Below the pieces are notes generated by a model. The model did no database searches, was not told the origin of the DNA, and saw only the letters and a program-made list of their open reading frames with translations. DNA of 64,000 nt from Mytilus trossulus (Eukaryota), in the NCBI RefSeq assembly GCF_036588685.1, contig NC_086375.1:56916001-56980000 (forward strand). The letters run 5' to 3'. This document shows, piece by piece, positions 26,001-63,218 of this stretch. Within the stretch, counting starts at the first letter, position 1; each line of letters starts with the position of its first letter. Position numbers and translations under genes: made by a program.

Positions 26001-29000
26001 GATTTTATGAAAAATAGTTACCTGATGATAATTCAATAAAATTGAGAATGGAAATGGGGAATGTGTGAAAGAGACAACAACCGGACCATAGAGCAGACAA
26101 CAGTAGAGTTTTCTTTCCCTGATAGGATGAAAACTTATACAGATGAAAGATGTGTTGAATGGGAAGAGGCCTATCAATTGTGTGTTCAATATGTCTTTGT
26201 TTAAGATCGTTTTTACACAAAAGAAAACAATATTTGTTTTTGTGGATTGTAACTTGAGTTTTCCTTTCTTAGAGATGGAAGATATAGGGTAAGGGAAGGC
26301 ACCTATTGATTGGGGTCAAAAAGGTCAAATTTCAAGGTACTTGTTACTGAAAAATTTGTTTCCAGATAGCAAGTTGAGTTTCAATTGCCTGATTTAATTT
26401 GAACAAATGAAAGATTATATGTGATTCTGGGAACATTTGTTTAAATTTATTTTGTAAAATTTTTCTCTTTTCCATTACAGATGTTTGAGAAAAATGATGT
26501 GATAAGTTCATTGATGTTAGAGAACAGAATAATTGAAGTGATAACAAATCTAGTGGCTAGAATTAACAGTATAACAACAAGGTAAAGTTTTGCTAAGATA
26601 AAATTTCAAAGAAGCACTAAGATATTAGGATGCAGAGCTGTATGTTTTAAAATATTGTTGAAGTCATGGACTTAAAAAGGCTAGACACGATCAAATTTGA
26701 TTTTAATATGCCAAATTTTTAGTATATTTGAAGGATGTGTTTATGAAAAATCAACCAATTGACACTAAACAATAACCTAAAGACATGTAGAGGTCAACTT
26801 AATAATAAACAAGGTTAATACATTATGTAAAGCTTTTTATGCCCCACCTATAATAGTAGAGGGGCATTAGTATTTCTGGTCTGTGCGTCCATGCCGCCGT
26901 TTATCCGTCCGTCCGTTCATTCATTCGTTCATTCTTTTTTTCGTCTGTCCAGTTTCAGGTTAAAGTTTTTGTTCGAGGTAATTTTTGATGAAGCTGAACT
27001 GAAGTCCAATCAACCTGAAACTTATTATATATGTTCCTTATGATATGATCTTCCTAATTTTAATGTCAAATTAGAGTTATGACCCCAATTTCATGGTCCA
27101 CTGAACATAGAAAATATTGTGCAAATGGGGCATCCATGTACTGGGGACACATTCTTGTTTTTTGCTGCTTATGCATTTAACCATATATTTCCAGGTATAC
27201 TATTTCATTGTTTAATAGTATCATTATATAGATCTAAGAAGATTTGGAATGAGTGCCAATGAGACAACTCTCCATCCAAGTCACAATTTGTTAAAGTAAA
27301 CCATTATAGGTCAAAGTCTTCAATACAGAGTCTTTGCTCACACAGAACAGCAAGCTATAAAGGGCCCTCAAATGTGACTACTGTAAAACCATTCAAACAG
27401 GAAAAACAACAGCATAATCTAAAAAAAAAACAGAAAGAGGAACATTTATAAACCACATCAACAAACAACAACAACTGAAAATCAGGTTCCTGACTTAGGT
27501 CAGGTGAAAACAAATGCAGTGGGTTTAAATGTTTTAACCTTCATCCTTACCTGAAACAATACAGAATGTATTTAAAAGGTTAAGTTAAGGATTCTTAATT
27601 ATACAGTGTAAGAAGAAAACAAAATGAGTACATTGCAAAAACATTACAAATTTTGCAATAACTTCTAATTTATTATAGTTTGGAAGTAAATAAAAAAGTT
27701 TAATATTTTGGATAAAAACTAATTAAAATGATTCAGTCGCTAATTTTCAGCACATATACATTTCATAAATATGCAGTAAACTACTGATGGAAATGTTTGA
27801 CATTGTTGAAACTTTTTGTTTGTGTTATTATTCTTATAAATTCTGCACTAACTGAATCTTTATGCTTACAGATTTACAGATATGGAAGGTATTGATGAAT
27901 ACCAACTAATTCTTGAGGATATTCAGATGCTATTGTGTAAAATTGTTATTAGAGAGTTCAGGTATGAATTTTGTTTTTAAGATTACTAGTTATTACAACT
28001 GGATAATCTGTGACCAATTTTCAAGGATTGCAGAACAATTGTATATTCAAGGATATTTGATCTGTTGGTTTTTCTGAGTTCTGTTTATAAACCTTTAGAT
28101 AATTTGAATTTAATTTTACATCTAATTTTGTGGTTTAACTTTGCCCTTGAAATCCCCCAACATTGAGTCTTTATTATTAAAGAATCCAAGATATAATGTA
28201 TATATTTATTTCGATGTTTATTTAAAAAAAAATGTGTATCTTGTTTTCTTTACACAATTTTCTACTATATCATGTGATCTATCTTTTTTGCAGGTGTTCA
28301 GGAATTAACCATATACAGCAATGTGAAGAAATTTTAGACTTATTAAAGTTGTTAGAACATGTTGAAGAAATTGTATATGGTGTGTATAAACATTTAAGAC
28401 AGATTTTGTGCTTCTCCTAAAAAACTGATTAGAATTAAATGAAATTTTCTTAGAATCTTAGCAATATACTGCCATTATTCACTTTTTATTTGTTTTTTAA
28501 TTCAGATTTTTGTTATTGCTTTTCTTAAGAATAATGGACTTTTCCATTGCTTTATATGGTGCTAGTATATTATTTTGTTAGCCTTGCTCACAGTACTTCT
28601 ACTTTAAATTAATGATAAATAATTGAACGTTTTGCTGTACCATACTTTATGTACCTTCCTAAGTTCAGATTGTAATTCAAACAAGCTTTATGAAAAATGT
28701 GTCTAAATACTTTTAACATATTATTTTATTCTTCTTTTTCAGGAAAGAATTCCAAACAGACACAAACTGTGAAGGCTCTTCAGTTTGTTGTTGTTTTGTG
28801 TGTATTGACATTTGTTGAAAGTGAAAGTCAAGAAGGAACTACTACTGTTAAAACTAAACCATACAAAAGAACTACTAGTATCAGTACTTATGGTAAATTA
28901 AATATAAACACTATATTAAACAAATTAGTCATTTAAGTCATCCCTTATAAAAAAAAAAATGTGCATATGTTATTGTTACTACCCATCAAAGAAATGCAAG

Positions 29001-32000
29001 TGATATCATTTCTATTTTTGAAGGAATTTATATACTGTTTTCTGAATACATGATAGTTTTATAGTTCCATGTAAAATTTGAATTCTGTAAGATAAGGGAC
29101 AATTCAGTGAAAATTTTCAGCCATTTTTTACTTAAATAATTCAAATATATGTGAAATATGTTCACTTCTTTTGCTTGTAAAATAAGGACTATTGTTTTTC
29201 ACTCATTGCCCATTATTATATTTTTATAGCAAATTGAGTATTTTCTTCTGGCCACTCTCTTCTGTATTATTTGGAACACTTTTAAATAAAAATATATCAG
29301 CACTATATATCAAACCACCATCCTAATAGAATATATGTGTGCACAAATGGAATATCCTGCATTAATCATCCAATGAAAATAAAACCTTATGTTTTGTCTT
29401 ATCTCACGAGCAACATATTTTTACTTAAATATGCCACACCTGTTACAATATAATTGGTGTATAGACTCGTATTCTATGTCTGTGTTATCCATTTCAGTCA
29501 GCTTAATGTCTGGATTACATAGAACTTAGAATATAATCATGTATCTCTGTAAAGATCACAATAAGTGTTCTGCTTTGTATTACTGCAATTATCATTGCTT
29601 TAAATGGATTTATGAAATTTCAGAGTTAACTCAAATAAAAAAAAATGTTTAAAAAAGTTTCAAATTATGAATTGATAGAAAACAAATTCTCACTGCATTT
29701 TGAATTGAAATTTGTATCCTGTTCACCTTGTATATATTTCCTTTGCAGGCAGCAAGATCACCATGCTTTTCCCTTCCACCTCAATCCGACCCTACCAATC
29801 CTCACCTTCCTTCCAGATTTCAGGTATCAACAAAGTGACTACTTTTGTAGATCAGCCATTTGAAGACAGCGGGGATAAGAAATTTCACATCTCACAGAAA
29901 CCAAATATGGTTAGCAGGGCATTCTCTGTAGACAGCAAACCGACAGGTTTATTAGGGACTATTTTAGGACTAGGAAAGAAGAAGAAAAATGAGTTCATAC
30001 CATTTACTCAGTCTGAGTTTATTGATAGACTGAAGAAATGGGTGGTGATATCCGTTGACCTAATTGTTTTATCAAGTAAGTTGAAGTAATAAAGATTTTG
30101 CTATCACCATTTGGCTCTTTAAACAGTAACATTGTTTAATCATTCCTTTTTATGCCCCACCTACGATAGAGGAGGGGCATTATGTATTCTGGTCTGTGGG
30201 TCCCTTCGTCCGTTCGTCCGTTCGTTCGTTCGTCTGTCCAGTTTCAGGTTAAAGTTTTTGGCCGAGGTAGTTTTTGATGAAGTTGAAGTCCAATCAACCT
30301 GAAACTTGGAACATGTATATATGTTCCTTGTGATGTGATCTTTCTAATTGTAATATCAAATTAGAGTTCTGACCCCAATTTCATGGTCCACTGAACATAG
30401 AAAATGATAGTGTGAGTGGGGCATCTGTGTACTGGGGACACATTATTGTTTTAAATATTGTTGATTATAAATTTTTTCAAGGGTTTGAGTATTAAAATAT
30501 GCACATTTTATTAATCTGTACTGAAAAAAAAAGTGTATTTTATATTGAAACAGATCTTTTTAAAGTAACTGCTAAGTGGTAAAGAGTGATGGAAGATACC
30601 AAAGGGATAGTCAAACTTGTTAGAACAAAACATACTGACAATGCCATGGCTAAAAAAACAAAAGGACAAAACATTCATTTGTATATTCTTTCTTTACATT
30701 AAAAAGATAAAAACAAAAAAAGTACAGCAATAACTTTCAAAAATTGCAGAAAACATTTTCAGTTATGTTGAACATAATGAGTAATGAGTAAATAACATTT
30801 CTACTAATTGATTACAGAACTTGAAGAAATAAAAAAGACACCTGGCAAAAAGAAACTAAATTTACTGGAAAAATCTGAGCCTATCACCATAGAAACAAAA
30901 TATATTCGTCGATTATTTGAGTTTCTATACCGAGCATTGGAAGTAACATTGTCTCAGGTAAGATGGAGTGCATATGTATAAACACTTTGATACTGATTTA
31001 ACTCCTCAGCAATTGATCTGCTAGAGTTTTCAATTGGATAATGTAAATGAGGTTTTTTTTGGCACAGGTGAAAATGTTTTTTTTTATTTTGACAGGTGCA
31101 AATATACTCAAATTTGTTTGTGTGCATCATGGGATAAATGATATTGTATATTTTCCTTGCTCTGCAATTTGTTAAATTCATGATTATGAATTTAACAGAC
31201 CATAGTAAGAATTTCATTTGAAACAAATCTTGGAATAAAATCTCGATATGAAATTTGAATAATTTTCATTTGAAAATGAGGCATGTGCTACTTCATATTT
31301 TATGAATGACATTTTCTTAATGGTTTAAAATTTAAGCTACATTGCAAATCTGAATATGGTGTCATTGATGAGTTTCTTTACTTATATTTTATTCCTAAAT
31401 TTCAGGACAGGATATTACCAAGAAAAGAGAAGAATTTGATCATGTGGGGAGCTAAAGATATTGTACGAGTTCAGGTACATTTGTTTCTATGTTTTTATGG
31501 TTTTATAATAGTACAGTTGTATCAATCTGTGGACACATAGGTATCTTTGTTGTCACATTTGTTGCAGTTGACAAATCTTTGTAGCATTTAAAAGCTGTTT
31601 TTTGGTGTTAAAAATAAGGCTAATATATTAAGTTTTGGTAAGTTTTGTATCAGGTTAAGGTTGTGGGCTATCATTGGCGGATCCAGAGGGGTTCAAGGGG
31701 TTGGAACCCCCCTTTTTTTGCCAAATCAATGCATTTGAATGGGAGCACATAGTTTGAACCCCCCCCCTTTACTCTGGGTTGGGAACCCCCCCTTTTTCAA
31801 ATGGCTGGATCCGCCCCTGACTATGGTATTTATCCATGAATTTTGTAGTCAAATCAACTTAAAACTTAAAACTGATGTGCATTATGTAAAATGCTTTTAA
31901 TTCATGACTTGCAGGGTTCACTGAAAAATGGAAAATATGGTATTGTGGACACAGCGTTGTGTTCTATAAATTTTTGTATTTGAAAAAAAATGATTATCAA

Positions 32001-35000: not shown

Positions 35001-38000
35001 TATTGATGTTTATATGCAGATTAAAAACAAAAAATGAAAAGTTATATCAAGAATTGTCAAAGCAAGCCATGGATGTCACACAGAATGTTACTCAGTTACA
35101 AACTCATGAAAGAAACAAAATGATTGAGCATGTCAAGAAAAAGATGACAGAAAAAATACAGATAAAGAAAATGTGGCAGGAACTTGTACAGAATCTCACA
35201 CATGAAAGGTAGCTAGAATTATGATATATATTAAGAACAAATCTGATAATTAACCATTTCTTGTACAAATGTTACATATACTGATGTAATGTTCAAGTGT
35301 ATGAATCCTCCCTGTATAATCTGAACATTTTAAAACTAATCTGAGAAGCATGAAACACAGGTTGCAGTAAGGAATCATGTTTCAACAAAATGCATATTAA
35401 TTTTTTTTTAAATTTTCACAGAATGTTTTAAGATTTATATCCTCTCAACTATGTTCTACTTTTTGACACATGATATGCATAATATTATTAAAAGTTAATA
35501 TCAAACATAATTTTGTGTGTTTTGTGTTCAAATGTTTAAAGAAAGTCAATTAAGAATGTGAACTTTACTTAAAAATTTGTAAATTATTTTTTACCAGGGC
35601 AGTATGGCATTGCCAAAAGTCTTATCCAAAATCATGGCAGTTAGATCCAACAGAGGGTCCTGGTCGTGTTAGAAAGAGATTGAAGAGATGTCATCTGGGA
35701 CTGAACCCAAGATTTCTACTGACACAACAGAGAGAGAAATTAGGTATTAAAACAACTCATTTTATCTGTAAGATTCTAATTTATTTTATGACTGTAGAGT
35801 AATTTATTTTGTTAGTTGTTGAAGCATTGGGATTGTTCTCCCTTTCAAAGATTTAATCAAATTTGGTCTTTTTCAGAAGATAGTATCAAAACTGGTAATG
35901 TCTATAAAAATTTAAGGCTAATTCTAAGAAGCTTTTGTTAAAACATTTCTTTTGCTAATTTCTTTAAGGCTTTGCCATTAATAGCGATCTTAGATACACG
36001 CTTTATTCATTCTGATTTTTCTTATGTCTGCTCAGTTTGTTAGGAAAGTGTACTAGGGCTACACATTTTGCTCTACTACTGCATAGTGATGGCCAGGTTC
36101 TATTGGTAGAGTACATGTAAGCTGGAGTACCTCACAATTTTGTTAATTATGATGGGGGTTGAGCTTGCCTCACATGAGAGGGTTTGAACTAATAACCTCA
36201 GTGTTGACAGGAAAGTAGTGATAGTGACAATTCATCAGAACAAATGGTTACAGTTTATGATTGAGCCTAAACAAGAATTAGGTTTATTCCTCATATAATC
36301 AATGATGATCTTCATGCTTTTATTCAGACTATTTATGCAGACTTATATTAACTATACTAGCTTGCTTAAACTCATTTGTGTTCCAAATAATTGCTTATGG
36401 TAATTAATCTGATCCTATGTAAAAAAAAATCTCATAAATCAAATTTGATTTAATGAATGATAATTATTAAAAGAAATCACCTTAATTTTAACACTTTTTG
36501 TAGAAGAAAAAAAATGTAATTTATTTCAATAGACTGTGCATAATAAACTTTCAAGGTACAATGTTGAAAACATTAAGGAACATTCTCAATGTAAGTTTAT
36601 TGTCTACAATTTCTACCACTTTCTACAACCTTTAATATTATTGGTTATTGTTTTACAGAAGCTGAGAATATTGACCCACCATTGATTTATTTGTTTGAAG
36701 ATGACCATCAAATGTCAGACTCAGCAGCACTTATATATCAGCTCTATAGGAATGAAAAAATACAGTAAGTGTTTAGCAATACTAAAATGTTCAAAATTCA
36801 GGTAACGTAAGGGTACCCAAATTGCACCGTGTACCCAAATTGCACCTATTTAGAAAAAAATAGCCACGGAAATCTTACAAGATTTCCTAGAGACTTAAAA
36901 ATTTGTATTTTTATGATTTGATACTATGCACGTCTTTCAACATAGGTAAACATATTTAGATATACACAAAACGTTCACAGTATTTATCAACAGGTGGACT
37001 GTTTACTGAAAAAAACAAAATGTACGAAAACGTCAGCATGCGACGTCATCAAAACGTCATCTTTTTAAAATTAGCAAATACAATATATTATAAGTATTTA
37101 TTTCGTAAAATATGAAGAGTAAGCATAGACTAATATCCAATTGTTCAAAATATTTGAAGAAATTAAGCAAAAGCTCGGTTATTAGACTTTTGACGATGTG
37201 AATTAAAGCATGGATGCAATTTGGGTACTCCTCATTACAGAATCATGGACAGTTTGTATGTTGATTCAAACCCATTTTTTTATGACTCAAAATGGGATTA
37301 AAAATTAAATTGGTGTACCTATACAATAAAGAAGGATAGGGCTACAAAATAGACACATTAATGACATTTATTTCTTGATCATACAAAAACGAAGGTGAAA
37401 AAACTGTCAAAATAGGTGCAATTTGGGTACCGTCACGTTAAGTTAAATAGTGAAAAATTTCTTTATTTTTTTCAAATTTATTCACAGAGGATCTGAGAAA
37501 AAATTAAAATGCATACATTGTGCAAGTTTAAAGATATCTTGTAATTTTATTGAAAGTACCAGTATATAAATAAAATTTACATATCTAGCAAAGATATATT
37601 TGTATTTGTATACTTGATGACAAGCAGAGTTTTTGATGTTGATTATTCTGAAGTTTGGGAGCTGAAAACTAATTTTTATGCCCCACCTACGATAGTAGAG
37701 GGTCATTATGTTTTTTCTGGTCTGTGGCTCTGTTCATCCATTCGTTCTTCCGTTTGTCCCACGTGAGGTTTAAGTTTTTGGTCAAGGTAGTTTTTGATGA
37801 ACCTGAAGTCCAATCAACTTGAAACTTAGTACACATGTTTCCTATAGTATAATCTTTCTAATTTCAAGGTCAAATTAGATTTTTACCTGATTTCATGGTC
37901 CATTGAACATGCCAAATGATAGTGCGAGTGGGGCATCCATGTACTTTGGACACATTCTTGTTAATCCTCAAATAAAAGGTCTGATAACTGTCTTTTACTT

Positions 38001-44000: not shown

Positions 44001-47000
44001 CAACCTTATCCGACTGTAGAAAATATTATTAATTTGGTAACAAAATAAACAATGCTGCATAATACACAGATATACTCATCGGGCTAAAATATGTTTGCTA
44101 TCAAGGTAACAGTCTGCTAGAAAACATATCACTTCAACCTAGCATAATATTAACTCTATAATCTAAGCTATACAGCCATTTCTTGTTACTCTGAAATCCA
44201 CCTATTAAGGTAGAAGCAGGAAATTTCATTTTTAGAATTACAATATCTGGCAATTCTAAGAGTTTACATTTACCTTTTGAAGGTTTAAATCTTTTGCTCC
44301 TTGCTTTGGAAGATACTGTAATGAAACATACATTAGATGCCAACTAATTTACAACATGCCATAGGGAAAGTGCTTTTAAATTAAGATTTCTTAGTAGGAT
44401 TAGAACAACACTATTTAATATCAAGGTTAAAAGTTGATGGTCATTTGATAGAATTTTAGAAAGTAATTTGTGGAGCTGAATGATTGAGTCCAATAATACT
44501 TTAATATTCTAATTTTTTTTTCTCTCAGGTTACCTATATAGCTGCCATAGCAGATTGTCCACATCTGTTTGTTGGTTGTGAAAGTGGATCTATTACTGTT
44601 TATCAGACTGTCTTTAACCAAGCCAAGGTATTCAAACATAAAATTAACTCAAGATTGTTTCTACTAATATTGTAGATTGATTGATTTATTATGATTTACT
44701 TTATGTCCATTGACAAGTATTTCTTGCATATTCATGATAAGAAGAGTTTACAGAATGAATCAAACAAGTAGTATCTTCAAAACAATGTAAAATTGAGAAT
44801 GGAAATAGGGAATGTGTCAAAGAGACAACAACCCGACCAAATAAAAAACAACAGCAGAAGGTCACCAACAGGTCTTCAATGTAGCGAGAAATTCACGCAC
44901 CCGGAGGCGTTCTTCAGCTGGCCCCTAAACAAATATATACTAGTTCAGTGATAATGAACGCCATACTAATTTCCAAATTGTACACAAGAAACTAATATTA
45001 AAATAATACAAGACTAACAAAGGCCAGAGGCTCTTGACTTGGGACAGGCGCAAAAATGTGGCGGGGTTAAACATGTTTGTGAGATCTCAACCCTCCCCCT
45101 ATACCTCTTACCAATGTAGAAAAGTAAACGCATAACAATACGCACATTAAAATTCAGTTCAAGAGAAGTCCGAGTCTGATGTCAGAAGATGAAACCAAAG
45201 AAAATAAACAAAATGACAATAATACATAAATAACAACAGACTACTAGCATTTAACTGACATGCCAGCTCTAGACTTCAATTAAACTGACTGAAAGATTAT
45301 GATTTCATCATATGAACATCAGGCACAATCCTTCCTGTTAGGGGTTGAGTATCATACCATCATAACATATATGAGAACATAACCCGTGTCATGCCAACAA
45401 CTGTTTTTAGAATAAATGTGTTTATTTCCGATGCAAAGAATTTATCATCACGTGACTCAATATTAACGCCAAAATGTGCATTGATATGTTAAAATAAAAC
45501 TACCAAAGAAAAAGTTGGTTAGAAATCTTTTAAAACAGTTGTAATGTTGACTTTTGCAATACAATAAAAAAAATGGTATCCATTATAGCAGGGGCCTCTG
45601 TTTAGTGGTCTAAGTAGTTCAACTACTGTATTACTAGCCTGTCAACACAGAGGTTGTCAGTTCGAATCAAAAACACAATAGTACTAGTGGTGTTAGGCAC
45701 AAAACAATCATTTAATCAAGGTAAAACATTAAGATTAACCATTATACTTACAGACAAGTGATATACAGATAAAAGGAGTAAAACATGTGTTATATGGTCA
45801 CACACGAAGGATTACACAGATAGTCATATGTAAGGCATACAGTATATTTGTTAGTGCCAGTGAAGATAGATCTTGTATTATATGGGACTTAAATAGGTAA
45901 GTCTTTATAGAACTAATATACCATACTTATACTAATGGATTTTTATTATTAATTAAAATTGAATATATGGTCTTAAAAATAAAAAAAATAAAGATTTCAT
46001 TCGTCCCGCTTCAGTTTAAAGTTTTTGGTCAAGGTAGTTTTTGATGAAGTTAAAGTCCAATCAATTTGAAACTTAGTACACATGTTCCCCATGATATGAT
46101 CTTTCTAATTCTAATGCCAAATTATAGTTTTGACCCCAATTACATGGTCCACTGAACATAGAAAATGATAGTGCGAAGTTCAGGTTAAAGTTTTTGGTCA
46201 AGGTAGTTTTTGATGAAGTTAAAGTCCAATCAATTTGAAACTTAGTACACATGTTCCCCATGATATGATCTTTCTAATTCTAATGCCAAATTATAGTTTT
46301 GACCCCAATTACATGGTCCACTGAACATAGAAAATGATAGTGCGAAGTTCAGGTTAAAGTTTTTGGTCAAGGTAGTTTTTGATGAAGTTAAAGTTACATC
46401 AACTTGAAACTTAGTACACATGTTCCCTATGACATGATTTTTCTAATTTTGATTCCAAATTAAAGTTCTGACCCCAATTTTCATGGTCCACTGAACACAG
46501 AAAATGATAGTGCGAGTGGGGCATCCGTGTACTATGGACACATTCTTGTTGTACCTGATATAGGACAAATATATTAAGATTGTACACATTTTGTCAATTA
46601 CAGATTAAGCTATGTGAGGTCAATTGAAGGTCATAAACATGGAGTAGATGTTGTAGCAATAAGCCCAACAGCTGGAGATATAGCTTCAGCAAGTAGACAA
46701 GGTAAAACATAGTGCAAGTACATAGTCTCAATAGAAGTTGCCTGGCAGCTTGTAGGAAGCATGATTCTAATGCAATTCGTTTGTAACGATTTTTTTCATT
46801 GGACATTGACATATATTTTGAAGGGGTAAATTCAATGTTCTTACCGTCCATAAGTAAGAAAGCTACCATTTTGAATTCCTATTTATTTTTGTCATGTAAA
46901 TTCTCACAAAAATAAACATGAAAGTCACATTTTGAGCCTCACTAAGTACTTTTTGTCAACATTGAAACCATTATAAAGGGTACAAAAGGTATATATTCCT

Positions 47001-49580
47001 TCTAGAGTTTTATGTTTGACATTGTGAGTATACATATGACATCACATTATTTAGTTGCTGTAGACAATGCAACAGTTTCGCAGACTTTTTCATTTGTGTC
47101 ATTTTACGGCAAAATATTTGTTAAATGGTATCTATTGTCATATGCTGCATGAGAATGCAGATAACTGTATTGTATTTGAAGCTTGGCCTTCGTAAAACTT
47201 GATTTTACTGTCGCAAATATCCATTTACCTAGCAGAGCAATTTGCGACAGTAAAATCTACATTTTAAGAAGGCCAAGCTTAAAATACAATTCAGTTATCT
47301 CCTAATTTTTGTTTTAAAGAATTTTGTTTAATAGTTGTATTATTTATGTTCACATAGGAAAACTGTTTATCTGTCTATTTATTTTTAGGGCTTGGAAGTT
47401 GTTTACTACTACATAGTATAAATGGAGAATACATAGATATTTACACATCTCAGGACCATGTGATCAACTGCCTTGCTTTTTCTACAGCACCAGAAGGACA
47501 GTCTATTAATGTGATAGCAGGAGGTCTAGATAATGGTGTAATTAGGTATTTTTTTATTATAATACATTATACCCCAAACAAAAGTTTTCATGGATCAGAA
47601 TCAATTTTTTTCAGTAGAACTTCAATTTGTCTAGTATAAAGCTGTAATTTATTTCCAGTTATTGTAGGAAGACTTTCAATAGTCAATACATCAACTCATG
47701 ATATTGTCATTTTGAAACAATTTGTAAATCTAGATCTAGATTATAATTTTTTAAAGAAAATTTAAGAAAATAAACATTTTTCAAAGAAAATGTTTTAGAT
47801 TTTCTGAAGTGATGAATATTCATTAGTAAAATATTAAGATTCAATTTTTTTTAAAACATGCTGATAATTTAAATACGCTGTCTGTTGAGCAGTTTTACAA
47901 GTTCTTGCATTGATGATATTTTCATATGAGTTTGCTTTGATTTTAAATTCTTAAATAAACATGCAAAAAGTATGTGTTACCATGCTTTTTTAAAAGAAAC
48001 CTCTAAAAATTATTCCTGATAATGTGTCCAAAATTGCCACCTCATATTTTACATTAAAAATCACTACTCAGATTTCAGAAAGTTTAATGGCTTCTCCTAC
48101 TAGATTCTAAAATACAAAGTGAACTAACTGGCAAACACAGATAATTTGTCTTCTGTTGGTAATTTTGAATATATTTTTGAACTTTTTATAGAAGTCCTTT
48201 TTAACGATTCAATTATCTTGGTGTCATCATAAATAAGGGTAGTAAGATGTTCACCTTTTGTTAATCAATTATCTTTCCTCAAACTATATGGACTTTCTGT
48301 TAAAAACGACTTCTGTGCTTGAAATAAATATTTTGTTGAACATTGTATTGATAGAACATACATTTCTGTTTAATAGGATATGGAGTACAGTTGATTTAAG
48401 ACATCTCCGAGATCTACAGACAGAGAATCTCATGTTAAAACCAGTTATCAGGTAATGTAATGATTTTCTATGTATTCTTTCTTTTGCTTTTAAGGTATAC
48501 TGTGGATTCATTATTATTTGTGGAATACCAACTTTCGTTGATTTTGTGGGCACAAATAAACCACTAAAATAAATGTTCAAAGAATCACAAATTTCATTTA
48601 GGCTTGTATAAAGACTTAGCAAAACCATGAATTTAAATATCCACGAACATGTAAGTTTTCCTTAATCAACGAAAATTGATACTGACGAAAATAAATAAAT
48701 CCACAGTAAATAATTTACACCCATTTATATTTAGACACTTTTCCTTGAGTGTTTTTTTTTTATTTATTAGTTCAAAATCAGTATCCTTTTAGAAGGGCAT
48801 TAGCTGTCAAATTGATGTTCACCGATTTCACTCAAATGCTAATATTTGATACATAACATGCTTAAGCAATCAACAATGCATGGACTTGATATTATGTATT
48901 AATATTTCGTGTGAATTTTTATCTAGACGTCATCTAATTAAATATCTAGATCTGACTCATTGGACTGTAATGATGTCATTATCATGTGATATTGTGCTAT
49001 CTAATGATGAAAATCAGAAGTTTGATTATTTTTATGCCCTCACCCCAGGTACAGAGGAATTAAGTTTTATTCATGACCATCCGTCCTTCTGTCTTTCTTC
49101 TGCCCCATTTTGGTTGCTAAACTTGAGTAGGGGCATGAATGTACATGTTTTGATAACAAATATTTTGCTCAAAGGGTGTGGCAAATGTTTTTTTCAGAAA
49201 GAAGTTAAACCTTAAAAATGATTTTTTACAGGAAAATATTGCTTAATCATGTTAAGTATCATACTCTCTAAACAGTCTACTTGATCTTAAACTAATTAAA
49301 GATGGAAATCATGTCTGGTTTATTTAAATTTGGAATTTTTAGATCTTAAATAGTTGTTTTCAGATGTGATATTATTTAAGATTTCATGGCCCTACTCCTT
49401 TATTGTATTTTCATTTGAAGCATACCTGTTTATTTTTACTTTTTTGTATATTTCAGTGTTGTGTTTACGTATGATTCACATCGTTTGTATTCAACGTTAT
49501 CAGATGGAACTGTTGCATTGTGGGAATCGCCATCCTCAAGCAAACAACTCTTACCACACAAATTTGTAGCATTTCTGTAA
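4855..49580 (+). CDS. LYST: Lysosomal trafficking regulator (LYST/CHS1/Beige), BEACH-domain protein; 51 coding exons, about 3582 aa
   Basis: Manually chained exons with continuous frame and matching intron phases: 4855-5016, 7808-7889, 8261-10851, 12369-12536, 13037-13363, 13902-13968, 14197-14303, 14642-14798, 15197-15469, 16221-16359, 16594-16753, 17554-17725, 19213-19406, 20377-20637, 20869-21069, 21457-21735, 22322-22520, 22916-23029, 23486-23998, 24576-24718, 24957-25126, 25603-25735, 26481-26581, 27872-27961, 28294-28379, 28743-28892, 29749-30075, 30818-30957, 31406-31474, 32153-32287, 33918-34091, 34450-34526, 35020-35208, 35598-35743, 36659-36764, 38415-38476, 38772-38983, 39410-39654, 39954-40020, 40469-40619, 41475-41615, 41930-42147, 42603-42827, 43287-43479, 43791-43927, 44529-44627, 45754-45896, 46604-46701, 47389-47545, 48377-48451, 49457-49580 (TAA). 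Sum 10749 nt. LYST-type motifs recognised from memory: [77 protein letters not shown]. Confidence 0.95.
5052..5313. mobile_element. Palindromic non-autonomous element (about 60-bp arms plus tail bounded by a short inverted repeat)
   Basis: 5052-5114 is the reverse complement of 5138-5197; tail GTTTATTGGTA...TACCGATAAAC. Confidence 0.7.
5960..6343. mobile_element. Palindromic non-autonomous element
   Basis: Hairpin 5960-6105; tail TAATTACACC...GGTGCAATTA. Confidence 0.7.
8261..10851 (+). CDS. LYST: LYST large internal exon (2591 nt); corresponds to the 869-aa ORF
   Basis: Acceptor tattttatag at 8251-8260, donor AAG|gtatgt at 10852. Contains [18 protein letters not shown] and SGICCCM, similar to the LYST N-terminal region. 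Confidence 0.92.
13415..13810 (+). mobile_element. Degenerate Helentron/HINE-like element with tandem core repeats
   Basis: Three diverged units containing GAGTTATGTCCCTTTA; 3' hairpin TGTGTCC..GGTCACA; same family as 40662-41112. Confidence 0.55.
15197..19406 (+). CDS. LYST: LYST exons 9-13, ConA-like/LamG region
   Basis: [17 protein letters not shown]...[29 protein letters not shown]; GT-AG junctions all in phase. Confidence 0.85.
15603..15929 (+). mobile_element. 5'-truncated tRNA-derived SINE nested in another repeat
   Basis: B-box GGTTCGATTCC 15626-15636 and (TAAAC)-type tail. It interrupts a copy of the 44786 repeat (15515-15602 and 15930-16003). Confidence 0.7.
16788..17336. mobile_element. 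Palindromic non-autonomous element
   Basis: Near-perfect hairpin 17172-17336; tail ATTCTAATGCA (16788)...TGCATTAGAAT (17160). Confidence 0.75.
18121..18894. mobile_element. MITE with long TIRs and TA target-site duplication (Tc1/mariner-type site)
   Basis: TA|CTGTGAAAGTACTTT..TTCGTGG ... CCACGAA..AAAGTACTTTCACAG|TA. Confidence 0.85.
19654..20232. mobile_element. MITE with AGGAGTA terminal inverted repeats
   Basis: AGGAGTATGTTCGATAAG..TGGCCCC ... GGGGCCA..CTTACCGAACTTACTCCT. A related right end occurs at about 39845-39881. Confidence 0.75.
26834..27160 (+). mobile_element. Helentron non-autonomous element (HINE/DINE-1/pearl-like)
   Basis: TTTTTATGCCCCA 5' subterminal repeat, GTCC/ATTC microsatellite, one core unit, TGGGGCAT, 3' stem-loop, T-rich insertion site. 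Confidence 0.8.
27236..27560 (-). mobile_element. SINE-like repeat (TTGTCTCATTGGC 3' family)
   Basis: AAGAAGATTTGGAATGAGTGCCAATGAGACAACTCTCCA end; a related end lies at 40714-40760. Confidence 0.55.
30147..30450 (+). mobile_element. Helentron HINE copy
   Basis: Same architecture and sequence as 26834-27160. Confidence 0.8.
31672..31819. mobile_element. Short MITE with GGCGGATCCAG TIRs
   Basis: CATTGGCGGATCCAG ... CTGGATCCGCCCCTG. Confidence 0.7.
32746..33780. mobile_element. PIF/Harbinger-type MITE
   Basis: TTA|GGCCACGGTTTTTTAATTTGTTGGTTTACG ... CGTAAACCAACAAATTAAAAAATCCTGGCC|TTA; 3-bp TTA TSD; internal A run followed by a long G run. Confidence 0.85.
35598..38983 (+). CDS. LYST: LYST exons 34-37, WQLDPTEGP motif and PH domain
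   Basis: RAVW...[17 protein letters not shown]; [34 protein letters not shown], typical of the BEACH-associated PH domain. Confidence 0.92.
36803..37440. mobile_element. MITE with GTACCCAAATTGCACC subterminal repeats
   Basis: TAACGTAAGGGTACCCAAATTGCACC ... GGTGCAATTTGGGTACCGTCACGTTA; the motif is also repeated internally. Confidence 0.8.
37673..37962 (+). mobile_element. Helentron HINE copy
   Basis: Same architecture as 26834-27160. Confidence 0.8.
39410..42827 (+). CDS. LYST: LYST exons 38-43, BEACH domain
   Basis: [80 protein letters not shown]. Confidence 0.96.
40662..41112 (+). mobile_element. HINE-like element with a nested SINE end
   Basis: TTTTTATGCCCCA...GGGGGCAT..TGTGTCCCATGAACACA; SINE end at 40714-40760. 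Confidence 0.6.
43287..49580 (+). CDS. LYST: LYST exons 44-51, WD40 repeats and stop
   Basis: LYGHTRRIT...[31 protein letters not shown]; stop TAA at 49578-49580. Confidence 0.92.
44786..45482. repeat. Dispersed retroposon-like repeat (AAAATTGAGAATGGAAATGGGGAATGTGTCAAAGAGACAAC family)
   Basis: Partial copies at 26035-26102 and 15515-16003. Confidence 0.7.
45997..46550 (+). mobile_element. 5'-truncated HINE with three tandem 169-bp core repeats
   Basis: Units start at 46012, 46181 and 46350; the 3' TGGGGCAT and stem-loop are intact. Confidence 0.85.
47159..47300. mobile_element. Palindromic element related to 17172-17336
   Basis: AGATAACTG..AAGCTTGGCCTTC..TTTTACTGTCGCAAAT / ATTTGCGACAGTAAAA..GAAGGCCAAGCTT..CAGTTATCT. 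Confidence 0.7.
48500..48706. mobile_element. Short TA|CTGTGGATT MITE
   Basis: TA|CTGTGGATTCATT ... AATAAATCCACAG|TA; a decayed relative lies at 52077-52260. Confidence 0.75.
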
Positions 49581-50836: not shown

Positions 50837-50880
50837 ACGCCAGACGCGCGTTTCGTCTACATAAGACTCATCAGTGACGC
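50837..50880 (-). ncRNA. Minimal type I hammerhead ribozyme, intact core, within a retrozyme fragment (about 50805-50935)
   Basis: Reverse complement reads GCGUCA CUGAUGA GUCUuauguAGAC GAAA CGCGCG UC UGGCGU. Flanks match the 58724-59149 family. Confidence 0.85.
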
Positions 50881-55254: not shown

Positions 55255-55552
55255 GCAGCACAGTAGGCATCACTTCGTTTGTTGACATGAATATCAATTA
55301 ATTTATATGGTTGTTTTTTTATAAATTTCCTGTTTATAAAAAGAATGAATTTTTCGAAATACCAATACTACAAGACATATATTTCCTTAGCCATATTTGG
55401 CACAACATTTTGAAATTTTTAGTCCTCAATGCTCTTCAACTTTGTACTTGTTTGGCTTTTACAACTATTTTGATCTGAATGGGTCTGATGAGTCTCATGT
55501 AGACAAACCGCGCGTCTGGCGTATTATAAGCCTGGTACCTTTGATAACTATT
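55255..55552 (+). mobile_element. Degenerate retrozyme copy with a mutated hammerhead
   Basis: Body similar to 58860-59140. CTGATGA at 55485-55491 is retained, but GAAA has become AAAC (55505-55508) and the 5' strand of stem I is lost. Confidence 0.75.
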
Positions 55553-57119: not shown

Positions 57120-60100
57120 ATGAATGGAATAGTAAAATTATCATTATTTGTCTTTTTTCAAATTTACTTTTTTTACAGGTAAGAACGTTTACTCAATAGT
57201 ATTTCTTCAGACCAAAGATACTTTTAAACGTTCACTGTAAATACTTCACAATTAAACATACAAGTAAAATATGAGGAAGACCAGATATTTCTATGACACA
57301 TGTGTAGTCTCAGAATAGATGCACATGAAACACTACGCAAATTAACTAAATTAAGAATGTCTTTAGCAGTCCAGATTAATTTTCAATAACTACGTAAAAC
57401 AATAAAAGAAAAACAAAGAATAGTTGAAATTTTGACCAAAATACAAACTCCCGTTCATTTATCATGTTTAATCATTTACCATGCAGGGTTCATTCAATAT
57501 AGACTATTGTTTGTTCACTGAATGTCGTTCACCTTTCCATTTTCTGTAACTTTAATAATTAGAAACTGTTTATTTCGGGCAATTGTGAGCGTAGTACCAT
57601 GTAGCTCATGGGTGTAGCTACTTGAAAATAAATTGTAAGCAGGGTGATTTTGTAAAATTATCTAAAATTAATTAGCGAGTGAAGGAAGAGGTGATGTGCA
57701 TGTAAACAAGTCAGGGAATTTGCATATCTAGGTAACTAGCGTTAAAATTTTTAAAAAAGAGGGTGGATTTGTCCAACTACAGGGTGTGGAGCCACTATTG
57801 GTGGGGTATTCATTTTGGATGGTAGACTTGTCCAAGTATATGGTATGATGTGACTATTAGAGTCCTCATTTGAGGGAAGCATTGTCAAACTAAAGGGTGT
57901 GACGCCACTGTTGGCGTCTATTCTCCACTTTCGACTAAAGAATAGTCCAATAATAAGGTATGGCGTCACTATTGGCGTCCGATGTCATATTTTGAATGTA
58001 GAATGGTTCGAAATAAGGTAAATCGTCACTATTGGTGTCCGGTATCCACTTTCGAGGGTAGAATGGTAAAATAAAAAGGTATGGCGTTCGCGTCCTGTGT
58101 CCAGCTTCATGGGGGTCCCTTCGATCAAATATAACTAATTTCTATTTGGAAATAAACATAGTATTTGAATTACGATTAAGCAATAAAAATCATTATATCC
58201 TGTGGATAGTTTGAAACACGCTTATCCTGTATAACAACTTAACAAGTAGTATTTGGTTGGGAGCAAACAGCTTAGGGCAGTCGGATAGGCGAAACTACTG
58301 ATTATCCGTATTATTTATAATCATTTTTATTTTAAAATTTTACATTCGTTTTATTCTATTAGTATTCTGTAACTGTCCCAGCGGATGGTCAAGATACGAA
58401 CAATCATGTTACCACGTCAGTAGAGATTCAGCATCGTGGGCAGAAGCCATGGTAAGTATGATCACCACGAGCGGTATTGCATACTCAATCATTAGAAAAG
58501 TTAACAAAACAATAGAATAAATAAAGTTATACCTTCCAAGGAAAATATACATATATTATATATACAATGTATAGTGGCCGTTTCAACTAGATGCTTAGCA
58601 CATGCCTACTACAAAATAAGGACAAACGTAATCATTAGTGTGGTGGTATCAATTATTCTGCGATCATATGATTTTAAAATATGCAGAAGTATTTCTGCTG
58701 AAATATATATTGTTTTAGTATTTATGAGTCTTTTGTAGACGAAACGCGCGTCTGGCGTATATACAAAATTTAGTCCTGGTATCTATGATGAGTTTAGTTA
58801 CTACCACTGGGTAAATGCCACTGCTGGTGGAGACTTATTTCCTCGAGGGTATCACCAGCCCAGTAGTCAGACATGAATTATCACTGATTTGGTTATATTT
58901 ATAAATTTACTGTTCACAAAATTTAGAATTTTTTAAATACTAAGGCTTTTCTACCTCAGGCATATATTTACCTTAGCTATATTTGGCAAAACTTTTGGGA
59001 ACTTTGGTCCTCAATGCTCTTTATTTACGTTCTTTATTTGGCCTTTATAACTATTTTGGATTCGAGCGTCACTGATGAGTCTTTTGTAGACGAAACGCGC
59101 GTCTGGCGTATATGCAGAATTTAGTCCTGGTATCTATGATGATTTTATTTGTTATCGTTTAGAAAATGTGTGAAATACACGGGAGTTTCCTTGCAAGCAT
59201 TGAAACTGTTGCTGAAGACCAGTACATGAAAACCCTACTTGGAGCTCAACGTCATAGTAAGTACATAATAAGAACATGGAGATCTGATGAGTTAAGCAAA
59301 TTCCAACTGGTTTGTTCTTATTTTGTCCTGTAACGCAACTGAATGAATGACTCGATTTGTCGATTCTGAAGAAATTTTATTACACTTGTTAACTGAATGA
59401 ATAACTCGAATTGTCAATTTTCATAAATTATTTCAGTCAAGTATTAACTAAAAAGTTTGTCATCGTAGCTGAATTCAGTGGTCCATATCTGGATTGCATT
59501 GTGAAAGTATTATCAACCGATAGATGTAGTTCACCTTGTTTTAAAATACTTTCAGCTTCAAGCTTTTGGTTAGGTGGATCAGATTGGGACAACGAAGGAG
59601 AATGGAAATGGGAACCACATGCAATTCAAATGAATTTCACTAACTGGCACAAAGGACAACCAGACAATAGTGGAGGCAAAGAGCATTGTTTATCTGTACA
59701 CAGATCCTACCGTTACGAGTTTGTCGATAACAACTGTCACGATTCACAACACTATTTGTGTGAAAAAACGTACGTACTTGTGCATATAGCAACTGATTAT
59801 CCAAAATGTAAGGAGCTATCATTTTATTTTAGTTTAAATTCAGATACTAGTATGTAGGACTCTAAAGTGTAACGGGGACGCTAAAGTACGATATTCACGT
59901 CAAAGTGCGATGGTCTGCGTTAATTAAAGTGCGATGCCTCCATACGCGGAAGTCCGATGTTTGCGAAAGTATAGACGTACTTAACGTTGGATTATGACGT
60001 TAACAGTCGTTTATACAAACCAATAAGATTTAATCAAAAGCAAAATACTTTTGTAAAGTTTACAGAAATAACCAATAAATTCATTAAAATTGTATAATGA

Positions 60101-61253
60101 CTTTATAAGGACAATGACACATCAGCTACAAAGAAACAACACTTGATTAGAACCTCAAAAGAAACATTCATACCAAGTTTGGTTTCATTCCATTAAGCGG
60201 TTTTCTAGAAGAAGACTTTTGTATATATTTCCAATAGGGTCCTTTGTTAAACTAAGTCTCTCGTCGGTAGTCATCTTGGTTGATTGATTTGCTTCAAAGT
60301 AACAACACTTGGTTGGCATCTCATAATGAACATTCATGTCATGTTTGGTTTCATTCCATTCAGTGGTTCTTCAAAAGAAGACTTTTGTATGTATATCACA
60401 TATGGTCCTTTGTTAAACTAAGTTTCCCGCTGGCAACCATCTTGGATGATTGATTGGCGACAAAGAAACAACACTTGGTCAGCACCTCATAAGGATAATT
60501 CATGCCATGTTTGGTTTCATTCCATTAAGTGGTTCTCTAGAAGAAGACTTTTGTACCATCGTACTTGGGTTTAGACAATCGTACTTTAGAGTGAACCATT
60601 GCACTTTAGCGTGAGACACCGTGGTACTTTAGCTTAAATCATCGCACTTTAGCGAGATCATCGCACTATAGAGTACCATCGCACTTATATATATATATAT
60701 ATCTACTTTCACATTTATCTCAATGAAAATATTACACAGGATAAAATAAAACGCAGGTGGAAGCTATTTGATAATTAAGTGTAAGCTTAACGCCCAACGG
60801 CATATGTTTCAAGCACATCTAGTACAAGATAAAAAAAAAAAAAACAACGAAAAAAACATTCACACTATTGTTAAATCATCCCAATTGTCTCATCTTATTA
60901 GAATGTGTTCCAAATTTTGAAATAATCTGAATTATTTTGGTTTGCTGACGTCAGTGACCCCCTGCTTAAAATTGAACTCGACTCGATTTAACTCTAAAAA
61001 GATGATTTTCGTGTCCTAGAAATAGTTTTAAAATGAGCTCATCATTTGCCAAGTTTTGCTAACAAAATTATAATGTTTACAAGAGAAAACATTTATTAAG
61101 ATACATTTGTAAGCATCACGTCTAGCAAAGAAGGAGGTCCATTAAAATAACACCCCCAAACCATTTCAAAAACAATATCATATGTATGTTTCATTTTTTT
61201 ATTATTATTTTAGGGACACCAGTAGCACAGAAACAGAGGTTCTTGGAAAATGA
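57120..61253 (+). CDS. Secreted perlucin-like C-type lectin, 5 exons, about 164 aa; exon 1 appears frameshifted by one extra T (null allele or homopolymer error)
   Basis: Exons 57120-57178 (signal-peptide-like MNGIVKLSLFVFFQIYFF), 58363-58451 (CPSGWSRYEQSCYHVS..SWAEAM), 59163-59256 (MCEIHGSFLASIETVAED), 59556-59769 (FWLGGSD..EGEWKW..NWHKGQPDN..EHC..C..YLCEK), 61214-61253 (DTSSTETEVLGK*). AATAAA at 61385-61390. Confidence 0.88.
58724..59149 (+). mobile_element. Non-LTR retrozyme: 351-nt unit bounded by direct repeats carrying type I hammerhead motifs
   Basis: Direct repeat ATGAGTCTTTTGTAGACGAAACGCGCGTCTGGCGTATAT..AATTTAGTCCTGGTATCTATGATGA at 58724 and 59075. Equivalent GUC sites at 58752 and 59103 are 351 nt apart. 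Confidence 0.85.
59066..59109 (+). ncRNA. Minimal type I hammerhead ribozyme, intact core
   Basis: Stem I GCGUCA/UGGCGU; CUGAUGA 59072-59078; stem II GUCU-uuugu-AGAC; GAAA 59092-59095; palindromic stem III ACGCGCGU; GUC cleavage triplet 59101-59103. Confidence 0.88.
59860..60686. mobile_element. Element with multiple inverted AAAGTGCGAT subterminal repeats enclosing about 2.5 tandem units of about 166 bp; lectin intron 4
   Basis: AAAGTGCGATG repeats on the left and CATCGCACTT repeats on the right; AACAACACTTG at about 60136, 60301 and 60468; followed by (TA)n. Confidence 0.7.
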
Positions 61254-61504
61254 TAACATATTATTACTAAATATCTTTTTAATATCTTACTTATTTATTG
61301 ATAAATCAAGTTGGCTGCTTTTAGAGGCAGATTTTATTTGATGTACCTTGAGTAATACCTCTGGTCTGGGACTGGTTGAGATAAAATAAAACTTACTGGT
61401 ATTTGAAAATTACCATAGTTAATCTCTGCAAAATGTTTGTGTGCCAGTATTAAGTCAGACACATTATTAGTTAATACCATTTATATATATATATATATAC
61501 ATAT

Positions 61505-62064
61505 AGACGGCTACAGTGCAGGCGATTTGGTGTTACGATATCTCAGTAGCATGGATTCGAATCCCGGGGAGGGAAGCAAATTAACAGATCTAACATTGTT
61601 GGGTTAATGTTTAGACAAGTTGTATATACATAATGTACACAGACATGTATTACCATCACTGCTGGTGATCCGATGGATAAATCTGTTGTAGAGTTGTCAC
61701 TGGCACAGACGTACTATTTTCTATGACTGTATCTTACATTAATTTGTAGGATCCTTTACTATAGATAATTTAGCTGATCTGTAAAAATAACATCTTCATG
61801 CCTTATATATCATGTACTGTAGTACGACGCTAGATTAATACTTGACGCATTTTTTTTGTTCTTCCCTCGCCGGGATTCGAACCCATGCTACTGAGATATC
61901 GTGACACCAAATCGCCTGCACTTTATCCGGTGCGTTAGACCATACGACCACCTGGGCTTCACAATAATAAAGCTTTCGGTGGCCGGGTGTTACCTTTCCT
62001 CGTCAGTTTAAATCTGGGCTTCACAATAATAAAGCTACGGTGACCGTGTGTTACCTTTCCTCGT
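61505..62064. mobile_element. Inverted composite of a tRNA-headed repeat with a hammerhead-like motif, inserted in (TA)n
   Basis: + copy 61505-61847 (B-box-like GATTCGAATCC) faces a - copy 62017-61846 (A-box TGGTCGTATGG, B-box GGTTCGAATCC). Partial tandem repeat 62013-62064. TA runs on both sides. Confidence 0.7.
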
Positions 62065-62362
62065 ATATAATATGCATTTAAGAGTCCTTTCAGAATTTTT
62101 TAGGGGAAAATATCTCTGGTAGCAACTCTTAATTTTTAGTAGGGTCATGTAATTCCTAGCATTTTATGCAGACACTTCTGGCTAACAGTCAGTCAGATTT
62201 GACTTTTACCCAAAATTTGCATGCATAGCAGAAAAGCAGCAATCATTGTTATTAAACACACAACATTAAGCACTCTTTGTTGATAGGCGCACCACCTTCA
62301 CAATTAACATGTTGCAGCAGATAAAAGATAGGCACAACACCTTCAATATCAAAACATTGCAA

Positions 62363-62535: not shown

Positions 62536-63218
62536 AGATAAAAGACATGCACAATACCTTCGCTATTAACACATTGCATCAGATAAAAGATTCCTTTTGT
62601 TTTGTTTTTTTAATCCTTATATGAGATCATTTGCCACGAATTTGTACGCCATATTATCCATATATTTCAGTTTGAAATAATAACTGGTATCGACGTTTCT
62701 TAAGTAGCCGCAATATCGTAATATAGTATTTCAAATCAACGACTATATCTTTATCCACCGTATTTAGGATTTTTTGTCACGAGTTGATTTATAATATATC
62801 GTGACAAAAAATCCCAAAATATGGTGCATTAAGATAATGAAGTTCTTGGACTACATACCATGAGATACAGTTAGTTTAATCTTGTTCTTCTATATATTTC
62901 CAAATGTGTGAATACTATTTACTTTTCTTATAAATATCGGAGGTCCAAAAGAGGCCAGATTTGACATAATCATTTGGTTTCTCTTGTTTTTTTATAAACT
63001 GAAATCGTTTAAGAAAATGCCTCTGAATGCCAAGTAATATACTATTGTCAGTCATTGGACTATTTGAACAGCGGTATACTACTATTGCCTTTATTGGCTC
63101 TAGGTTTCTTATATCTGCAGTCCTTATCTCCTGATGCTATATTTACACATGCAGATAAGACTGTTTAATGGAATAAGTCACATTTCATACATGTACACGT
63201 ATAATAGATCGCTGTACA

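Follow-up and report, generated by a model that had tools for sequence, protein, structure and literature searches.

A rearranged copy, more than one unit in length, of an abundant repeat of about 440 nt lies at the mussel locus studied here, and this repeat joins into a ring in DNA as well as in RNA. As its best explanation, to which we give a probability of roughly 55%, we regard it as a non-autonomous, retrozyme-like element which was mobilised by Penelope-type (PLE) machinery into (TA)n and whose hammerhead motif is a relic or weakly active. More than a proven new ribozyme, the element is likely a cousin of the known jumping RNA circles. In the following, the window means the whole 64-kb stretch of DNA that was analysed, and sources marked "in part" are cited for the part of them that was available.

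Layout of the locus

The features of the locus are collected in Table 1. On the right side, the flank is just a short AT-rich run. The two tRNA-like heads form an inverted pair of 69 nt (61508-61576 and 61861-61929, 93% identity), and the one on the plus strand is without 19 nt which are present near 61573 in other copies, where they show up as a gap against L001 and as an insertion in the reads. Other copies also carry 13 extra letters behind 61714 of the body. The preliminary description of the locus had quoted the minus strand of 62010-61960, had noticed a truncated repeat of the motif downstream of it, and had taken the end of the plus-strand copy for the lead-in to the core. These observations hold: the minus strand reads exactly as quoted, the downstream repeat is a partial one of 52 nt (61952-62003 and 62014-62064, 92%), and body, core, head and tail are collinear in L001. 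The plus block stops at core position 8 and the minus block sets in at position 6, so that the right block carries on the left one in flipped orientation. No further copy of the element was found elsewhere in the window.

Table 1. Features of the locus and a neighbouring exon (window coordinates; L001 is an independent copy from a metagenome contig)
Feature	Position	Strand	Remark
C-type lectin domain exon	59405-59857		
(TA)12 microsatellite	61482..61505		left flank, likely insertion target
5'-truncated tRNA-like head	61506..61576	+	B box with one change
Tail segment	61577..61622	+	follows head in family; collinear in L001
Internal TA-rich island	61623..61633	+	tail-to-body junction; L001 ends near here in genomic (TA)n
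AT-rich body	61634..61840	+	ends in lead-in to core; T4 run at 61717-61720
5' half of second core	61841..61847	+	positions 3-8 and one extra T, severed at inversion joint
Inversion joint	61846..61849		2-nt microhomology; L001 match extends to 61846
Whole tRNA-like head and initial letters of tail	61850..61957	-	A-box-like 61950-61940, B box 61883-61873
Two-stem hairpin	61945..61985	-	8 bp, GAAA/CCA internal loop, 7 bp, U-rich loop
Minimal type I hammerhead-like motif	61970..62006	-	predicted cut between 61970 and 61969
Partial direct duplicate	62014..62064	-	period 62, core position 6 to head start; GAAA broken

The unit joins into a ring

A scan of metagenome contigs gave one independent locus, L001, and scans of genome contigs gave none; two matches in viral contigs (L002 and L003), of 18-19 letters only, were dropped as chance. 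L001 is 90% identical to 61846-62015 and holds body, core, hairpin, head and tail collinearly, flanked by (TA)n(GA)n on one side and (TA)n on the other, with about 160 nt of body and core preceding the head. This copy starts in the (TA)n(GA)n, and at its positions 1290-1352 about 38 nt of body are missing relative to the window.

The stretch or part of it is contained in 20 of the 24 listed runs from 16 studies, mollusc metagenomes included. Four runs were placed on 61500-62070, namely two of raw RNA (X22 and X23), one set of DNA contigs (X2) and one set of long-read RNA contigs, and two runs with a share below 0.2 (X20 and X21) were left out. As 10,931 DNA contigs fit, the family is large.

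All four junctions between head, tail, body and core are read in DNA and in RNA, which supports the ring or tandem that the preliminary description had proposed. Head-to-tail joints occur in 1043 and 1320 reads of the two RNA runs and in 44 DNA contigs, the single joint 61574/61852 being found in 991 and 1276 reads and 10 contigs. The passage from tail to body is read directly, with a depth in X22 of 1416, 1207 and 971 across the bins of 61600-61659. From body to core, loose ends lead from 61842 into the rest of the core in 951 and 1023 RNA reads and 69 DNA contigs, besides collinear joints in 64 and 110 reads and 39 contigs, and the step from core to head is covered by 851 and 1097 reads. The pieces present in the window make a ring of 420 nt and other copies are longer by about 10 and 13 letters, so the unit is about 440 nt, which agrees with the 0.4-0.45 kb expected for a circularly permuted or tandem unit; its GC content is 39%, against 31% for the whole window. 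The order of a ribozyme motif 5' of the head was likewise seen as described, with the qualification that on a ring this place equals the 3' end of the unit. True arrays are inferred behind these joints and not seen directly, since no single record placed on the stretch spans a full dimer. A short, low-GC unit in head-to-tail or permuted copies is what retrozymes have, and about 440 nt is slightly more than the 170-400 nt given for them (PMC7229834, in part).

Abundant RNA largely confined to the unit

RNA of the element amounts to 4730 of 8,710,588 and 6066 of 8,252,136 records, that is, 543 and 735 per million. In the body (61720-61759), 98% and 96% of the depth is on one strand, and this dominant strand is the one of head and core if the library is of the usual type. 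All six of the largest listed loose ends lie inside the unit, and together they are about as many as the partly placed reads (3381 against 3269 in X22, 4146 against 4241 in X23), which means that most of the RNA reads stay within the unit and off the flanks. The RNA is circular or multimeric, and short reads fit either form.

Among the reads placed, no ends pile up at the predicted cut or at the head start, and there is a single weak pile-up at 61550. The two places are crossed by 92-100% of the number of reads expected if there were no RNA end, a figure that assumes non-overlapping classes. This lack of ends at the cut site is not decisive on cleavage. Opposite-strand RNA near both inversion joints fades within about one read length and probably comes from split reads which are labelled by their other piece. 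At 61692, 61714 and 61979 the RNA reads split into two or more haplotypes of similar weight, so that at least two templates are expressed. The RNA runs carry another species label than the best DNA holder, and differences between RNA and DNA may therefore be differences between species.

The hammerhead-like motif and its core

The hammerhead-like motif exceeds chance. The window copy has the full core of a type I minimal hammerhead of the PLE type (C3 U4 G5 A6 N7 G8 A9 / G12 A13 A14 A15.1 / U16.1 H17), with C3-A9 at 62006-62000, G12-A15.1 at 61977-61974, U16.1 at 61971 and H17 at 61970. The search patterns were modelled on the consensus in PMC4209133 and were written post hoc, when the motif had already been seen. 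With the loose core pattern, 3 matches were found in the window against 0.24 expected, two of the three being canonical retrozyme hammerheads. The strict minimal-hammerhead pattern turned up in 0 of 300 shuffles of the window and, when the element itself was shuffled, in 0 of 5000, and a pattern that allowed any letter at position 9 in 3 of 5000 and 1 of 200. In Rfam searches of the whole window and of three small stretches, neither a hammerhead nor a tRNA was called here, the matches being sub-threshold and unrelated.

The core is not the same across the family, the difference lying at position 9. It is A in the window copy and in the consensus of the DNA contigs (69 contigs, agreement 0.71), and U in L001 and in the consensus of the RNA loose ends (951 and 1023 reads, agreement 0.95 and 0.92), while the remaining 10 of the 11 fixed letters match in the window, L001 and the RNA consensus. 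Among the variants listed, the seven within 61960-62010 all miss the fixed core. The core is complete in one subfamily, and a complete hammerhead in each unit, as in non-LTR retrozymes, was not found. That 10 of 11 fixed letters are kept in three variants, in a motif far beyond chance, suggests selection more than decay, and this counts against reading the motif as a relic. On the other side, any core change disqualifies a hammerhead under Perreault's criteria (PMC3088659).

Helices and a hairpin over the cut site

The pair G10.1-C11.1 is present in 3 of 3 aligned copies, and the palindromic 4-nt stem III (15.1-16.1) in the window copy and L001. Helix II consists of 2 bp, a 3x1 loop and 3 bp, and it arises only under a folding constraint. 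Thus, from what had been quoted earlier, the core, the GAAA and the palindromic AGCU stand, whereas the stem II that was called foldable forms only if forced. In the consensus of PLE minimal hammerheads there is an extra nucleotide after position 9 and a helix II of 4-8 bp (PMC4209133, in part); the motif has neither an extra nucleotide to separate position 9 from 10.1 nor a continuous helix II of at least 4 bp, though a stem II of 2 bp does occur in natural hammerheads (PMC3088659). Helix I falls short of 3 bp beside the core. It reads A-U then A.A in the window and begins with A.C in L001, thus breaking at pair 1 or 2 in both genomic copies, just as the caveat of a weak stem I had warned, and in the aligned copies it is paired in 44% of cells. 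The expressed variant, according to consensus letters read by eye, would form four A-U pairs there.

In the folding comparisons, the canonical retrozyme hammerhead of the window served as control. In its context, the hammerhead-compatible ensemble of the element is 22 kcal/mol above the free ensemble, against 6.7 for the control; once the downstream hairpin strand is cut away, this penalty equals that of the control (6.57 vs 6.65 kcal/mol). The hammerhead-compatible fold itself has +0.8 kcal/mol, against -7.5 for the control.

The competing structure is the two-stem hairpin (-22 kcal/mol, z -5.68, 0 of 200 shuffles; in the L001 version -14.8 kcal/mol and z -3.62, both stretches having been picked after the fold was seen). 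It buries the predicted cut site, and it engages the 3' strand of stem II in pairing to the region of the A box. Three sequence variants retain it. The expressed variant has four linked changes (61961, 61968, 61970 and a deletion at 61959), each in 45-62% of the covering RNA reads, which, read by eye, keep six pairs of the inner stem while turning one U-A into C-G, and its hairpin loop is made of 7 U including the closing pair. Pair counts on the three genomic copies, which are too few for power, show no two-sided change in the hammerhead or in the hairpin. The hairpin may be an off-switch, or it may be the stem that closes the two ends of a unit transcript made by Pol III, or a truly selected structure. 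Blocked ribozymes in circles are known from plant retrozymes (PMC7229834, in part). The reconstructed ring folds only modestly better than its shuffles (z -1.9, 3 of 100), which speaks against the preferred reading, although the canonical retrozyme unit of the window is no better (z +1.1).

Is the ribozyme active?

Among the alternatives, the one that survives best is the model of the preliminary description, namely an active retrozyme with a Pol III promoter of its own. For this model, read-through RNA would be cut after H17, before the hairpin has formed, by a dimeric or protein-assisted minimal hammerhead, the monomers would be ligated to circles, and the hairpin would afterwards switch the ribozyme off. 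The window copy offers what this needs in its whole core, its G10.1-C11.1 pair and its palindromic stem III, and a turtle minimal hammerhead shares the 4-nt palindrome and U17 (supplement of PMC4209133, in part). Precedents exist for the 2-bp stem II and for ribozymes blocked in circles, as cited above, and the folding penalty is no larger than in the control once the downstream strand is removed. In the expressed variant, position 17 is C in 70 of 137 and 136 of 220 reads, together with the four A-U pairs of helix I. As to the smooth RNA coverage, circles would give closed junctions and no ends, and a PLE hammerhead site is likewise without read ends in RNA-seq (PMC11167929, in part). However, the expressed consensus and L001 have U9, the hammerhead fold is much poorer than that of the control, helix I is paired in less than half of the cells, Rfam has no match, and in none of the variants seen are A9, C17 and an unbroken helix I combined. 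We therefore consider this alternative unlikely.

The working ribozyme of the preliminary description is unsupported as it was stated, with U9 in L001 and in the expressed consensus, a broken helix I, a fold that is out-competed and no RNA ends at the cut. In the expressed copies the motif is likely a crippled look-alike of a hammerhead. Self-cleavage of the expressed U9 form seems improbable, and that of the A9 subfamily is doubtful.

The tRNA-like head and its putative promoter

A tRNA-like head with A and B boxes had been described, and the boxes were upheld while the tRNA identity was not. The B box is exact (2 matches in the window against 0.26 expected; 11 of 5000 local shuffles), and the A box, with one mismatch, is not significant when taken alone (169 window matches against 179 expected). 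ARAGORN calls no tRNA at the element, and the head is without a stable cloverleaf (z 0.82). As neither ARAGORN nor Rfam calls a tRNA, the term "tRNA-derived" depends here on the two boxes, which make a putative internal promoter. The Pol III drive of the preliminary description is, like its working ribozyme, unsupported in the form in which it was put. That the head might resemble class II or selenocysteine tRNA was considered, and dropped as no analysis confirmed it.

With such a promoter, a circle might also be made by Pol III without any ribozyme. Transcription would start after the U-rich loop of the hairpin and stop at the same U run one unit on, the ends would pair, and a host ligase would close them. 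Pol III start and stop would fall at such a U run shortly before the A box. In the expressed variant, the 7-U run in the hairpin loop precedes the A box by roughly a dozen letters, loose ends at 61958 number 294 and 281 reads, and the four linked changes leave the inner stem paired. Furthermore, the reads run undiminished through the U7 run, and also across the T4, and their passing of the U run is left unexplained by Pol III read-through. Against this, no 5' or 3' ends accumulate at the loop or 5' ends at the head, apart from the weak pile-up already noted, a T4 run stands inside the body, the window and L001 copies are without the U run, and we know of no route which ligates a triphosphate end. 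This way of making the circle is very unlikely.

The boxes could also belong to an ordinary tRNA SINE or satellite which multiplied in tandem and had its order scrambled at the DNA level, the motif being a coincidence and the RNA coming from host transcripts or from read-through of arrays. Bivalves do have tandem and palindromic SINE arrays, as well as unclassified Mytilus SINEs of 413-418 nt, known here by size only (both PMC11481361, in part), and A9 could be a subfamily mutation from U. However, a SINE should have its tRNA-related region at the 5' end (PMC11481361), and the head is internal in L001 and in the reads. No target-site duplication (TSD) of 6-18 bp, which is usual though optional for SINEs, is discernible inside the TA-rich flanks, and among the Mytilida SINE rows a TA tail is present in 0 of 37 and a TSD in 36 of 37 (PMC11481361, in part). 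What is more, the motif stays beyond chance even if any letter is allowed at position 9, and dispersed passengers would not give an RNA that is 96-98% on one strand and internal to the unit. We regard a SINE or satellite origin as poorly compatible with the data and give it little credence. A rolling-circle DNA element (Helitron/Helentron-like) with a captured tRNA-like piece, whose DNA replication made tandems and hairpin, is regarded as most improbable, for although there are a CTAG at 61830-61833 behind a weak palindrome, a strong hairpin and another repeat family in the window which we take to look like such elements, 0 of 4 outer ends (two of the window, two of L001) are at CTAG, the hairpin is internal, and an abundant one-strand RNA across every junction is left unexplained.

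Insertion and mobilisation

We now return to the preferred reading, that of a PLE-mobilised element. Both loci that are known with their flanks (the window and L001) are inserted in (TA)n. The earlier suggestion that inverted partial copies in (TA)n fit Penelope-type mobilisation is in line with what was found, a microsatellite target together with a tandem and inverted truncated insertion, if in a small sample. It is reported that PLEs produce partial tandems with inverted truncated copies, that head-to-tail non-autonomous PLE derivatives exist, and that Naiads prefer (TA)n, dominate bivalve genomes and are without canonical hammerheads though some retain the core (PMC8557442, in part). A hammerhead that cleaves may be unnecessary for this way of life: PLE insertion in vitro proceeds without hammerhead cleavage (PMC11167929, in part), and among predicted Xenopus retrozyme dimers 8 of 9 stay uncleaved (bioRxiv 10.64898/2026.07.22.740005, in part). 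As for an autonomous partner, 12 of 13 exact short words of the element were absent from the PLE consensus file of PMC8557442 (in part), and the 13th, a 9-mer, matched two unrelated places in it.

In the mechanism that we propose, transcription would pass through head-to-tail copies, or the RNA would be closed into a circle, and either would explain the even coverage of the junctions. A PLE enzyme supplied in trans would nick (TA)n and reverse-transcribe the circular or multimeric RNA from internal points, and such copying would give rise to permuted, truncated and partly inverted inserts, of which the flipped right block would be an instance. The motif would descend from a minimal hammerhead of the PLE type and would now be dispensable, as this copying needs no cut unit ends. 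A fuller picture can be drawn, of a circular mussel RNA with a tRNA-type promoter that is cut by a natural U9 hammerhead (or circularised without a ribozyme), locked by a hairpin which couples cut site and A box, and spread by Penelope-like enzymes; it is unlikely to be right in full.

Judged from its sequence, the inversion seems to have arisen while the copy was being inserted. Read in the sense of head and core, it is with their 3' ends that the two blocks join, and by our reasoning twin-priming would fit only with the opposite strand as template, which is at odds with the abundant RNA, probably of the head and core strand given a library of the usual kind. The outer ends 61506 and 62064, the L001 end at about 1288 and the inversion joint 61844-61847 all lie at GACG. 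This word occurs about five times per unit, and for three ends (both of the window and the left one of L001) to fall at it has a chance of about 4 in 100,000, a sum made post hoc. With three ends and such a sum, GACG might mark where reverse transcription starts or where breakage is frequent.

Relation to known elements

The closest systems appear to be metazoan non-LTR retrozymes, including Mytilus galloprovincialis families of about 350-390 nt (PMC7229834; bioRxiv 10.64898/2026.07.22.740005; both in part), which share with the element a short non-coding low-GC unit, a tandem or permuted layout, one type I hammerhead motif per unit, abundant RNA and PLE as the likely mobiliser. The element differs from the canonical retrozyme copies of the window in that it has no sequence match to them, its core is minimal and degenerate, and its helices are weak. 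It carries A and B boxes, whereas retrozymes are said to seem promoterless (PMC7761336, in part), and in the element, unlike in retrozymes, circularity and cleavage are putative.

A tRNA-type promoter and a hammerhead in a tandem-dependent unit are shared with schistosome SM-alpha and Sj-alpha (PMC6765202, PMC2770079; both in part), where according to a review the hammerhead is at the 3' end of the unit (PMC6765202). These have a canonical, cleaving hammerhead and apparent Pol III transcription, whereas cleavage and promoter of the element are putative, its donor tRNA is unrecognisable, and its hairpin couples the cut site to the A box. With PLE pseudo-LTRs bearing minimal hammerheads, Naiad and the non-autonomous Chlamys (MRC1) (PMC4209133, PMC8557442; both in part), the element has in common the palindromic stem III, the G10.1-C11.1 pair, (TA)n targets and a partial tandem with an inverted truncated block. 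It differs in having no ORF, no detected homology to a listed PLE and no extra nucleotide after position 9, in its helix II of 2+3 bp instead of 4-8, and in the tRNA-like boxes within the unit. Bivalve tRNA SINEs (Meta, V, Deu, MD, Core and unclassified; PMC11481361, in part) and Helenus TRIMs (PMC10886601, in part) also show A and B boxes in a repeat of 200-700 nt, whereas in the element the head is internal, the ends are variable, the flanks are (TA)n, and neither a TSD nor an LTR/PBS/PPT layout was seen. In particular, a Helenus or TRIM has two LTRs, PBS, PPT and fixed ends (PMC10886601, in part), and the two loci inspected have four different ends and no recognised PBS.

In the literature searched, with the Dfam/Repbase consensi outside the comparison, no description of the family was found, and five exact words of it matched only one unrelated paper. 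Six exact words gave no match in the supplement of PMC11481361 (in part), which carries little sequence, and five gave none in that of PMC4824008 (in part), both being weak tests. PMC10886601 (in part) likewise yielded no match.

If the RNA is circular, mussels would have a second, unrelated family of abundant retroelement circles, with an internal promoter of the kind that retrozymes are said to lack. The coexisting A9 and U9 subfamilies, with U9 expressed, would be a natural experiment on whether a hammerhead helps PLE-type elements or rides along. If the U9 form cleaves, it would be a new natural core variant, and if neither form does, a retrozyme-like RNA would thrive without its ribozyme.

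Other repeats and features of the window

In Rfam, two type I hammerheads slightly below gathering score were found in the window, at 50837-50880 (-) and 59066-59109 (+), the latter in a 351-nt repeat. Members of this canonical family are also seen at 58724-58760 (+) and 55468-55524 (+), and the spacing of the copies at 58724 and 59075 is 351 nt, which fits the size of the described mussel retrozyme (PMC7229834, in part).

About 0.9 kb to the left of the locus, at 60125-60622, there is a 166-nt tandem repeat of 2.6-3 copies. A dispersed family at 26833-27161, 30146-30462, 37673-37974 and 45960-46562 combines a tandem core of 169 nt with an inverted repeat in subterminal position and a short microsatellite, and it presumably is a Helentron-associated non-autonomous element, judged by its look. 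Short, near-perfect inverted repeats with arms of 39-43 nt, which are MITE-like or hairpin-like, lie at 17172-17336, 5083-5169, 5956-6109, 47159-47300 and 62746-62836. An open frame of 874 aa at 8248-10872, with no Pfam match, is probably one large exon.
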